A DNA stretch of 64,000 nucleotides, taken from contig JBNRSN020000010.1 in assembly GCA_051313645.2 (NCBI GenBank), forward strand, positions 96,472,001-96,536,000, given 5' to 3'. The position numbers and the translations under genes are program-made. Numbering within the stretch: position 1 is the stretch's first letter; every line of letters starts with the position of its first letter. Source of the DNA: Centroscyllium fabricii (taxonomy: Eukaryota). Below are positions 40,501 through 43,500 of this stretch, one piece after another. Under the pieces are notes generated by a model that ran no database searches, was not told the DNA's origin, and saw only the letters and a program-made list of their open reading frames with translations.

Positions 40501-43500
40501 AATCTGAATGGTTTTTTTCAAATTACTAACTGTTTTAAAAGACAATTACTTTGTCTTTATTTTTCTGAAAATAATTCTGCTAAACCTGAGAGCTGTTTAA
40601 CTGAAAGTACCAATACAAAAATGTTCCACTGAGTGTGCATTTTTCAATATGTATGTATTTTCCAAAAAAGTACAATTATTTTGTTGCCTTCAAATTTTAC
40701 ATGCTTACTAATAATTCTGTGCATATTTGATTAGGCCCCCTCTATTTGTTTTCATAGGAACTTGTAATTAAGAGTATTTTAAAGTCAGCAAGGGAAGAAC
40801 CTTCTGGGCCAGCTAGGTAAGTATTTCCAATAATGATAACTGGTAACGCAAATCTTGCTATCAATATGATGCCTATTTTTGTGCTGATGAGGAATAGAAC
40901 ACGTTCTTATTTCAGATATTCGGGGATAGCATCCTAGACTCCCTGGTCAATTACAGCACAGCCAGCAGCCGAATAAAGTTCCTTCCACTCAACCCAACCA
41001 CAATAAAGTACTCAATGCACCACTGTGGCATGTCTATTTCCTAGTAATTCTGTGGCCTCTTAGTCCATTTGCCATGTTTGTTTTGAGCCTGTACATAGTA
41101 AGAACTGGGTTAAGTTTGGCCTAATTTTTTTAATGTAGGATCCTTTAGGCCAATAGGGAGATCGGGTTAGTCTGGCTGGAGTCAAACCAAAATCCCAGAA
41201 GTAAAAGGACTGTGTACCAACCACTGCCATCCAGTTCTGCGCTTCTCCCATAATATCTTTAATATTAGTGCAGTAGTGTGTCTCATTCTCTGGTTACTGA
41301 TTTTAATATATTAGATAATAATTAGTGTGTGCAGTTTCTGGCAGATATAACAGGATGGTTAATTTACTTCATTTTTGATTTGAAATAATCTGAACATGCG
41401 ATAAAGATTAAAATAACTATTTTCTGAATGGTACATTATTGGCTTTCAGATATTTTCATAACTTTGATCTATTTTATATAATTTTTATTTACATAAGAAC
41501 ATAAGAAATAGGAGCAGGAGTAGGCCAATCGGCCCCTCGAGCCTGCTCCGCCATTGAACAAGATCATGGCTGATCTGATCCTAACCTCAAATCTACTTTC
41601 ACTCTCCATCCCGTCCGAACCCATGATAAATTCAAATTTTATTTGTCATATGTACTACAATGCAACGAGTGCAATCTAGACAGTGAAATGCTTTCTTTAC
41701 GGTCCGAGCGCACTGCGCAACAAAGAACACTAAGCTGCCCAGCACTCCCGGTGCCCGTAAGACGGCAACCACTTCACCGGCGCCATCATCATAGGTCCCG
41801 TTCTCGCACCGCTCCGGCCTCTCCTGCTCTTAGTCCAATGTTCTTCAAAGAACTGCAGCCCATCCGCCCGTCAGTCGCGAACACGATGATGCCACCGCTG
41901 AAGTCAAAGCCGCCAGTTCCAACCACAGAGCTTGGCTTACACAAAGCAAACTGCCTCCCCACTCCACAGTCCCAAAGTCCACATGAGCTATCTGCAGAAC
42001 CGGTCAACACCTGCCCCATGTCCCAGTCAACGTCCACACACCATACAGCTCCGGCGCGTCCATTGCAAGTGCCGAGCCTCTCGCCGTCCAGGGAACACCA
42101 GACACCAGCACAGGAGAACACCAAATCACCCCCCTGGCTGCATTCAACCTGTGCGACCGATCATCCACGACCCCGCAACAAGATGGGCCTCATGGCGGCT
42201 GCTGGTGTTGATTGCCCGGCCGGCGGCCTCTCACTCACGTCTCGGCACCCCACAGATCCACTGCATTCCTGGGAAATGGACATTCGCTGGTGGAAAGTTG
42301 GGTTGTTTCCCAACTACTGCCCAGCGAAAGCCCATGAAACTCTTATGCCTGGTAAAAGCAGGCGTAGGTCCTTTTATCAGCGTAAGAGTTTAAATATATA
42401 TTTAAAAAATGTTTAATTATTTACTCCCAAAACTGTAAAAATTAGTTATAGGTTGTTTTTAGCCCCTTTAAAATGGTTAAATTTATTTTTCAAAAATATT
42501 TTTTGTTTTAAATGTTTAATTTAATTGTATTTTAATTAATTTTGAACATGTAATTTACTTTTATTTAACTGGTGTGTAATTGTGTTTTTTAGAGGATTCC
42601 TATTCATGCTTATGGGGCTTCCATACGAAAATGGAATCCCCATAGGCATAATGGGATCCCCCTTTTTGATTGGTTGACCTGACCCACGTGATCCATGGGG
42701 CACTTGTGACCCGCATGCGCCCCTGGGATATTTGGGCCTTTGCGCATGTGTACGTGTAGAGGCCCAGGAGCTCGCGTCTATGAGCCTCCTGGACCATCAG
42801 GTAAGTTCATATTTTTCTTGTGGTTCGGAAGCCTCCAACTGCATATTCAGGCCCCTGATGTGAATTACTATCTCTTTTGCAGATGTGTTGCACTTTGCAG
42901 CCTTGGCATTTGGCTTTGTGAAGAATTGGTACATGGTACTCACCATCCTCAAATCAAAGATGCTCTAAATGTAATCTGTGTAACCTTAAAGGTAAGACAT
43001 TTTTTCTATAGTGATTTTTGTTACAGTTCAGCTTTTGAAAATGCCATATCAAAATTTTAAAGAATAAAATAAAACTTGTTAAAATGTATTTGCAGTTCCC
43101 AAACAAAGCAGTTGCGCAAGTGGCTTGTGATATTTTGCATTTATTGATCAATTATGTGGACAAGCTTCAAAATTATCCACCAGATTCTCCAAAAAAAATT
43201 CTTGAGGTAAGATGCATTTATTTATTCTATTGATTGGATATTAGCCTGTGAAAGTATTCTCAGCCAGTTAAGTTTATTGGCTATGCATGCTTGCATTGAG
43301 TAAATGGCTGGTTAGCTTACCAGGGATGATCATTTGCATTTATACAGCACATTTAACATAGAAAAATATCCCATAGCACTTCACAGGAGAAAAATATCCC
43401 ACAGCACTTAACAGGAGAGTAAACAGGCAAAAATTGACACCGAGTCAAAAAAGGAGATATTAGAAACTGTAACTAATAGCTTCATCAAAGAGGTAGATTT

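Follow-up and report, generated by a model that had tools for sequence, protein, structure and literature searches.

The window, which is the whole 64,000-nucleotide stretch of Centroscyllium fabricii DNA analysed here, carries a 5'-truncated, EIF3I-headed SINE-like retroposon on its minus strand at 41628..42253. This copy aligns with positions 57-690 of a 693-nucleotide family founder and belongs, by clustering, to edited subfamily 10. The original prediction had placed a retrocopy of spliced EIF3I at 41855..42245. The feature is longer, and its spliced origin is borne out: the minus strand reads EIF3I codons 1-119 (41851..42193) across all four junctions of parental exons 1-5. This coding head contains 48 A>G changes, a 15-nucleotide deletion and a stop at codon 11. 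It is preceded by an EIF3I 5' UTR remnant (42194..42253, minus strand, aligned with parental exon 1 and the founder) and followed by a non-EIF3I tail, delimited by alignment and nearly free of edits (41628..41850, minus strand). The tail includes the right arm of a perfect 19-bp inverted repeat (41813..41831, minus strand; founder positions 487-505, which pair with 4-22) and finishes in a LINE-like 3' end with a TTTGAA repeat (41628..41669, minus strand) that resembles the 3' end of an abundant LINE encoding reverse transcriptase. Other short repeat families in the same genome have tails related to the 3' two thirds of this one. The first ~45 nucleotides of the family, including ACTTCCGG and the left inverted-repeat arm, are absent from the window copy.

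Translation of 41855-42245 on the minus strand gives a degenerate eIF3i N-terminus, with a PDB match to eIF3i at E 4e-34 and a match to the Pfam EIF3I profile at E 2e-24 that lies below the whole-protein cut-off. Among named proteins, those of rays and sharks come closest. On the opposite strand, an internal exon of a RalGAP alpha gene occupies 42883..42991 (plus strand; RalGAPA2 residues 1182-1216, E 3e-11, with splice signals). The plus strand appears to carry two RalGAP alpha exons within 42883-43206, and the database match rests on the first of them. Because the retroposon lies 630 bases before this exon and on the other strand, it is likely to sit antisense within a RalGAP alpha intron, the upstream exon of which was not located.

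Parental EIF3I exons 1-5, cut at splice sites, lie at G000:C834:26067577-26083393, on a contig found by using the C-terminal portion of a shark protein as query. In the present gene, exons 2-3 give Pro32, Ala33 and Thr49; at these three positions, the residues of the founder and of two ray proteins are Thr, Val and Asn. The founder thus agrees with other cartilaginous fishes and differs from the present parent, which suggests that the ancestral parent resembled the founder and that the EIF3I gene changed after capture. Parental intron 3 (G000:C834:26076459) begins with GTATCCTT, which resembles a minor-spliceosome (U12) donor. A separate 49-codon fragment resembling mid-EIF3I (L024, G000:C800:57497099-57497245) is 77% identical and lies outside the range covered by the family.

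Structure and abundance of the EIF3I-headed family

The founder, defined from fourteen near-parental copies, consists of a 108-nucleotide 5' leader, EIF3I codons 1-119 and a 227-nucleotide tail ending in TTTGAA repeats. A DNA search returned 942 candidates, of which 40 were scored; apart from the window copy, these show 81-89% identity, most over nearly the full query. The 123 matches of a protein search mostly stop near codon 91 or 120. A pattern spanning the head/tail junction has 275 exact matches on both strands; this pattern recovers 12 of the 27 loci selected by their tails, and 44 of 117 when all loci are taken, from which we estimate about 600-750 copies. In all, 127 distinct loci were aligned. 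Twelve loci carry heads without tails, several visibly cut by other repeats, and show no recurring alternative junction.

Copies share a fixed 3' end with a simple repeat and vary in 5' truncation. Target-site duplications, as matches of at least 8 nucleotides, are found in 4 of 46 full-length copies. By alignment, the head derives from EIF3I exons 1-5 and not from tRNA, 7SL, 5S or snRNA, and because it comes from an mRNA rather than a small RNA we label the family "SINE-like". Passages of Kojima 2018 (PMC5786205) list SINE heads from 7SL, tRNA, 5S, U1/U2 (SINEU), 28S and GC-rich sequences. The EIF3I family resembles the classes described there in its composite head, its LINE-derived tail and its many copies of one structure, and differs from the heads listed in those passages in having the 5' end of a spliced protein-coding mRNA, with what would be a Pol II promoter. 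Like processed pseudogenes, the copies are intron-less and correspond to a housekeeping mRNA. Unlike them, they retain no more of the coding region than its 5' third, lack poly(A), have a LINE-type tail and have been repeatedly re-amplified as a unit; the stop of the EIF3I part at codon 119 and the founder alleles also set them apart. Reading the window copy as a single retrocopy is ruled out by the multicopy family and by the shared, inherited edits.

Several copies depart from the founder in form. L098 (G000:C336:803000-807500) carries a pair of unedited copies that point the same way, 2.4 kb from each other, and later insertions have split both. Edited subfamily 6 (L067, L072, L077, L213) has lost ~115 nucleotides within the head and continued to amplify, and subfamily 9 is without the head/tail junction. 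Edited subfamilies have their own 5' extensions of 10-25 nucleotides before ACTTCCGG (L004, L008, L014, L060, L068, L142, L148), as though each master locus had been transcribed from a start site a little way upstream. In unedited copies, the 5' flank often contains a TGACGT-like sequence.

The last ~50 nucleotides of the tail resemble the LINE 3' end in all five LINE copies compared, with local alignment scores of 44-55 against shuffle maxima of 37-45, each score exceeding all of its shuffles. The resemblance falls short of identity, and blastn gave no significant match. The LINE found ends in TTGAA repeats and the element in TTTGAA repeats, and the exact partner LINE was not found. One LINE copy (L169) carries RVT_1 and PF09004 domains. 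From its PF09004 domain, we provisionally take this reverse transcriptase-coding LINE to be of the Rex1/Babar type. A sister family (L034:2110-2730 on the minus strand, and L180-L204) has the same tail module with a different head, which is G-rich and A-poor (G 237 and A 95 of 620) and starts with TTCCGG repeats. This sister family is young, the best 40 of 1010 candidates being 98-99% identical, and it is therefore unusable as a control for editing.

Strand-specific A-to-G change and its boundary

Over 344 aligned coding bases, the window copy differs from this genome's own EIF3I exons by A>G at 48 of 98 sites and by T>C at 1 of 83 (Fisher P 4e-15). The other transitions are few (G>A 2/89, C>T 7/74). 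Edited sites by 5' neighbour number 5/24 after G, 10/13 after U, 18/27 after A and 15/31 after C. The central observation of the original prediction, a strand-specific A>G excess free of T>C-type damage, is thus confirmed, and more strongly than first described, against the parental gene, where A>G dominates both T>C and G>A and adenosines after a G are spared. Aspartate codons retain their A, as had been noticed, in 8 of 8 aligned cases. Other details need revision. The count of A>G changes is 48, not about 30. The remaining differences had been put down mostly to CpG decay, but just 4 of 19 are at parental CpGs; several others are at CpGs made by A>G (codons 64, 83 and 95), and several are differences between founder and parent. 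The stop at codon 11 had been read as CGA>TGA and derives from a parental AGA.

The sequence itself has genomic support: its pattern recurs at 10 other loci, and pieces of 78-84 bases inside the edited part are matched with zero differences by contigs of runs X12, X13 and X14, from two samples; this support comes from contigs, and no single piece covers the whole copy. All 48 head edits of the window copy are present in the consensus of the 11-copy cluster 10. This indicates that the window copy inherited its edits and, judged by its sequence, descends from an edited master and not directly from an edited RNA.

Across lineage consensuses, with polarity set by the parental exons, the coding head shows A>G at 943 of 2259 sites and T>C at 25 of 1927, with 6 A>C and 3 A>T changes. 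Only the sense strand is changed, the A>G rate is ~30-fold above that of T>C, and A>C and A>T do not rise above background. With each lineage counted once, rates by 5' neighbour are 0.77 after U, 0.51 after A, 0.34 after C and 0.17 after G (25 sites after G versus 81 others, site-level P 5e-8). Rates by 3' neighbour are nearly even (0.43 for G, 0.46 for A, 0.40 for C and 0.37 for U), with no enrichment of a 3' G.

Passages of one published account give the 5' preference of ADAR1 as U=A>C>G (PMC11120146), and passages of another describe hyper-edited human sites as depleted of 5' G and enriched in 3' G (PMC4365171). The even 3' pattern found here differs from that of the human sites, which counts against an ADAR reading. 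In the parts of these sources concerned with it, the published form of the 3' G feature varies between enzymes (PMC11120146, PMC4365171), and it is a weaker ADAR feature than the 5' context. The order U>A>C>G found here matches published ADAR1 preferences, which points to editing of the ADAR type: ADAR acting on RNA, followed by reverse transcription, would have made the A>G changes. The part of the original prediction that invoked A-to-I editing and then reverse transcription is therefore well supported by the strand and spectrum of the changes and by their neighbouring bases. A pattern of A>G alone on the sense strand does not fit APOBEC, nor does it fit GC-biased conversion or a reverse transcriptase that is error-prone in general. 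The genome has five A_deamin loci, and an expansion of ADAR genes is not seen.

Editing is unevenly distributed along the element. Observed editing relative to that expected from context falls from 1.00 in the coding head to 0.29 in positions 467-505, 0.06 in 506-600 and 0.02 in 601-693; the leader stands at 0.69. The change point falls at 438-516 in 16 of 22 cases, so editing stops at about the right inverted-repeat arm (window 41813..41831). Even among tail sites after U, the best context, no site has G in more than 1 of 21 lineages. This suggests that the tail lay outside the editable duplex and was thereby free for the LINE enzyme. At position 526, G is tolerated in a 23-copy subfamily but occurs in only 1 of 21 lineages; selection alone therefore does not account for the spared tail. 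Editing also reaches positions 475-499, past the EIF3I homology, which suggests that the duplex partner included element sequence.

Edited lineages and the RNA from which they came

Of the 127 aligned loci, which were chosen by similarity and not at random, 120 have at least 200 nucleotides of coding head and the other 7 were dropped. The A>G distribution among these copies is two-peaked: 95 have at least 15% A>G, 24 have less than 10%, and none exceeds 8% T>C. A less biased sample comes from 30 junction-pattern loci taken by position, although subfamily 9 escapes the pattern. Once a duplicate and three short copies are set aside, 26 remain; of these, 22 are edited, and the sample shows A>G at 792 of 2223 sites and T>C at 41 of 1891. 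Such editing, which the original prediction allowed might be widespread, is thus widespread within the EIF3I-headed family.

The 95 edited copies form 22 clusters, comprising groups of 29, 23, 11, 6, 4, 3, 3 and 2 copies and 14 singletons, and the residual correlation between lineages has a median of 0.04. Clusters 19 and 20 probably represent a single lineage. Clusters 9 and 10 have 43 edits in common where 35.5 are expected (P 0.0016, uncorrected for 231 pairs), and together with four other shared variants this makes a common edited ancestor likely. Three further edit patterns occur in the position-ordered sample of 30 loci. We count about 20-23 independent hyper-editing events in what is a partial sample, and at least about 20. 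The edit patterns are common to up to 29 loci on many contigs, whose copies are ~4% diverged from their own subfamily consensus by ordinary changes. Near-founder heads are also present: ~27 (24 plus 3 more) were found among scored search candidates, and in a search with the unedited head identity falls from ~90% to 84% within the best 40 matches.

The identity of the edited RNA is indicated by sites at which founder and parent differ. A glycine codon at position 82, where the parent has a conserved glutamate, occurs in 22 of 22 edited lineage consensuses and in 116 of 120 copies. This site has the disfavoured 5' G, after which the rate is 0.17. At the other diagnostic sites, no lineage has the base of the present parent except through A>G or CpG change. 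Gly82 in all lineages and founder bases at the diagnostic sites argue that the RNA that was edited was element RNA and not EIF3I mRNA. The exon 4/5 junction has two length alleles, each found among unedited as well as edited copies, which suggests more than one source.

The original prediction had named a lone hyper-edited EIF3I mRNA, and this part of it gives way to a multicopy family with a 227-nucleotide LINE-type tail, inherited edits and the founder Gly82. In a broader form, parental EIF3I mRNA, perhaps paired with antisense copies, would have been hyper-edited and then retrotransposed directly or template-switched onto the tail. Such an origin would account for the near coincidence of the edited zone with the EIF3I-derived zone, and Thr32, Val33 and Asn49 of the founder would fit an ancestral parent like the founder. 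Against it are Gly82 in 22/22 consensuses and 116/120 copies despite the low rate of 0.17 at sites after G, editing that runs past the EIF3I junction, and the single junction and founder 5' end common to all edited copies. We consider a parental-mRNA origin very improbable, and on these sequence features it appears largely refuted already.

Mechanism, alternatives and implications

The family has one chimeric founder, near-founder copies and many hyper-edit patterns, several of them re-amplified, with edits on the sense strand of the head. Our main reading, to which we assign a probability of roughly 0.85, is that ADAR edited the element's RNA in the germ line, that a reverse transcriptase, presumably of the Rex1 type, fixed the changes, and that the window copy inherited them from an edited master. 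The captured EIF3I 5' end, with its ETS-like ACTTCCGG motif, would let copies be transcribed. Founder-type RNA would form a long duplex over the head to about position 500, leaving the tail free, and ADAR would convert about 25-60% of head adenosines. The LINE enzyme would then prime on the intact tail and read I as G, and edited copies would turn into masters, which may now be the source of most copies.

The partner strand in this duplex is less certain. The element's own fold (z -1.9) has no long rod, the only inverted repeat being that of 19 bp, and self-folding of the head is not significant; only tail positions 551-650 fold well (z -4.0). No inverted head was found within 10 kb of 20 unedited copies or near eight more (6 at 10 kb, 2 at 5 kb; 28 loci in total), elsewhere in the 64,000-nucleotide window, or in 80 kb around parental exons 1-5, and the best 40 founder-like heads include no close inverted pair. 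Pattern searches gave 0 matches for head-to-head pairs within 30 nucleotides and 0, with one diagnostic pattern, for a flipped head between the inverted repeats. We give about even odds that the partner was antisense RNA from other family copies, ending near the inverted-repeat arm; such RNA would stop or start near this arm, whose opposite strand resembles the 5' end of the element itself. An antisense-directed case has reportedly been described in Xenopus oocytes. In descendants of subfamily 19, a 150-nucleotide stretch is still unedited and has not been hyper-edited again, with at most 5 of 42 A sites changed per copy in 29 copies, against 17.5 expected (67 A>G versus 25 T>C in total). Passages of a study of human tissues state that sense-antisense duplexes are rarely edited and that editing comes mostly from intramolecular folds (PMC13445718). 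Both observations disfavour a partner acting in trans, and the lack of re-editing in subfamily 19 is better explained by fold-back at a source locus now lost or unassembled.

Such a fold-back is a serious rival, if on balance a doubtful one. The enzyme would be the same and the duplex different: one or a few source loci with an inverted, head-only arm in a read-through transcript would yield an edited hairpin, and priming at the internal TTTGAA repeat would leave the inverted arm uncopied. This would account for the common end of editing near 440-515 (16/22 change points at 438-516) and for the want of second-round hyper-editing at new loci, and would fit the mostly intramolecular human editing described in those passages (PMC13445718). 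It is at odds with the lack of an inverted head near 28 copies (10 kb for 26, 5 kb for 2), of a close inverted pair among the best 40 founder-like heads, and of any head-to-head or flipped-head pattern match (0 of each), and with the presence of two junction alleles among edited lineages.

The failure to find a duplex partner in the loci and patterns searched could also be taken to favour a process that needs no RNA duplex, namely an adenine-biased reverse transcriptase or an ADAT-type DNA adenine deaminase, and an amphioxus tRNA-editing enzyme is said to have A-to-I activity on DNA, which would count for the latter. We judge this improbable. The tail is copied first and yet is spared (observed/expected 0.02-0.06), A>C and A>T do not exceed background, and ~27 copies are nearly unedited within a two-peaked distribution; deamination of first-strand cDNA, moreover, predicts sense-strand T>C, which is absent. 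The ~4% by which copies have ordinarily diverged from their subfamily consensus could speak for ordinary decay, for gene conversion biased towards GC or for an artefact of assembly. Conversion and decay are strand-symmetric, however, whereas the A>G rate here exceeds T>C ~30-fold, and an artefact is opposed by patterns at up to 29 loci on many contigs and by pieces matched in contigs of two samples. The strand asymmetry already refutes these explanations.

A stronger version of ADAR editing of element RNA, in which ADAR is the main generator of subfamilies, at least about half of founder-type insertions were hyper-edited and editing helped copies to become masters, is tentative, and we think it somewhat less probable than not. 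The fraction is estimated from ~27 near-founder copies and, in a partial sample, at least ~20 edit patterns. Edited copies may escape pairing or silencing aimed at EIF3I-like sequence.

Every ingredient of this system has precedent, and the combination is an mRNA-headed retroposon with subfamilies that are likely ADAR-defined. For APOBEC, DNA editing of retroelements is reportedly the subject of Carmi 2011. Passages of a further paper describe mutation scars that this editing leaves in endogenous retroelements (PMC2873906). As in that description, the EIF3I family has deaminase mutation clusters in genomic retroelement copies; APOBEC causes G>A through cytidine deamination of cDNA, whereas the family shows sense-strand A>G in an ADAR-type 5' context. 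The avian retroviruses RAV-1 and ALV undergo A-to-G hyper-editing by ADAR, as cited in passages of a review of the subject (Felder 1994; Hajjar and Linial 1995, in PMC8586724). To the extent that those passages describe them, the viruses share with the family clustered A>G in RNA that is later reverse-transcribed, and differ in that the carrier here is non-viral and non-autonomous and the changes are genome-fixed, have arisen repeatedly and define amplified subfamilies. ADAR also acts on RNA of Alu and other SINEs, according to parts of a 2016 review (PMC4982230). Unlike Alu as described there, the EIF3I family has DNA subfamilies defined by A>G, and no inverted neighbour was found near the loci searched. 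One finding that counts against an ADAR reading comes from HeLa cells, in which, in the relevant passages of PMC5224506, L1 RNA was not edited by ADAR1.

Neither ADAR-derived SINE subfamilies nor a retroposon with an EIF3I head turned up in the literature covered, mainly open papers. In the parts concerned with the question, the same 2016 review treats the role of ADAR in Alu subfamily evolution as undetermined (PMC4982230), and the EIF3I family offers genomic evidence on whether ADAR editing shapes SINE subfamilies. Because the parent, unedited founders and ~20 independently edited lineages are present in one genome, the direction, rate, context and boundary of editing can be measured. Copies look 15-20% diverged from one another, yet with A>G set aside they differ by only ~4%; ages inferred from the divergence of such repeats would greatly overstate how old they are. 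The family also presents the 5' end of a protein-coding mRNA acting as the head of an amplifying retroposon. If the version in which ADAR is the main generator of subfamilies is true, each singleton would be a single-molecule record of an ancient ADAR reaction, and RNA editing would be a heritable, selected mutational force in the vertebrate germ line.
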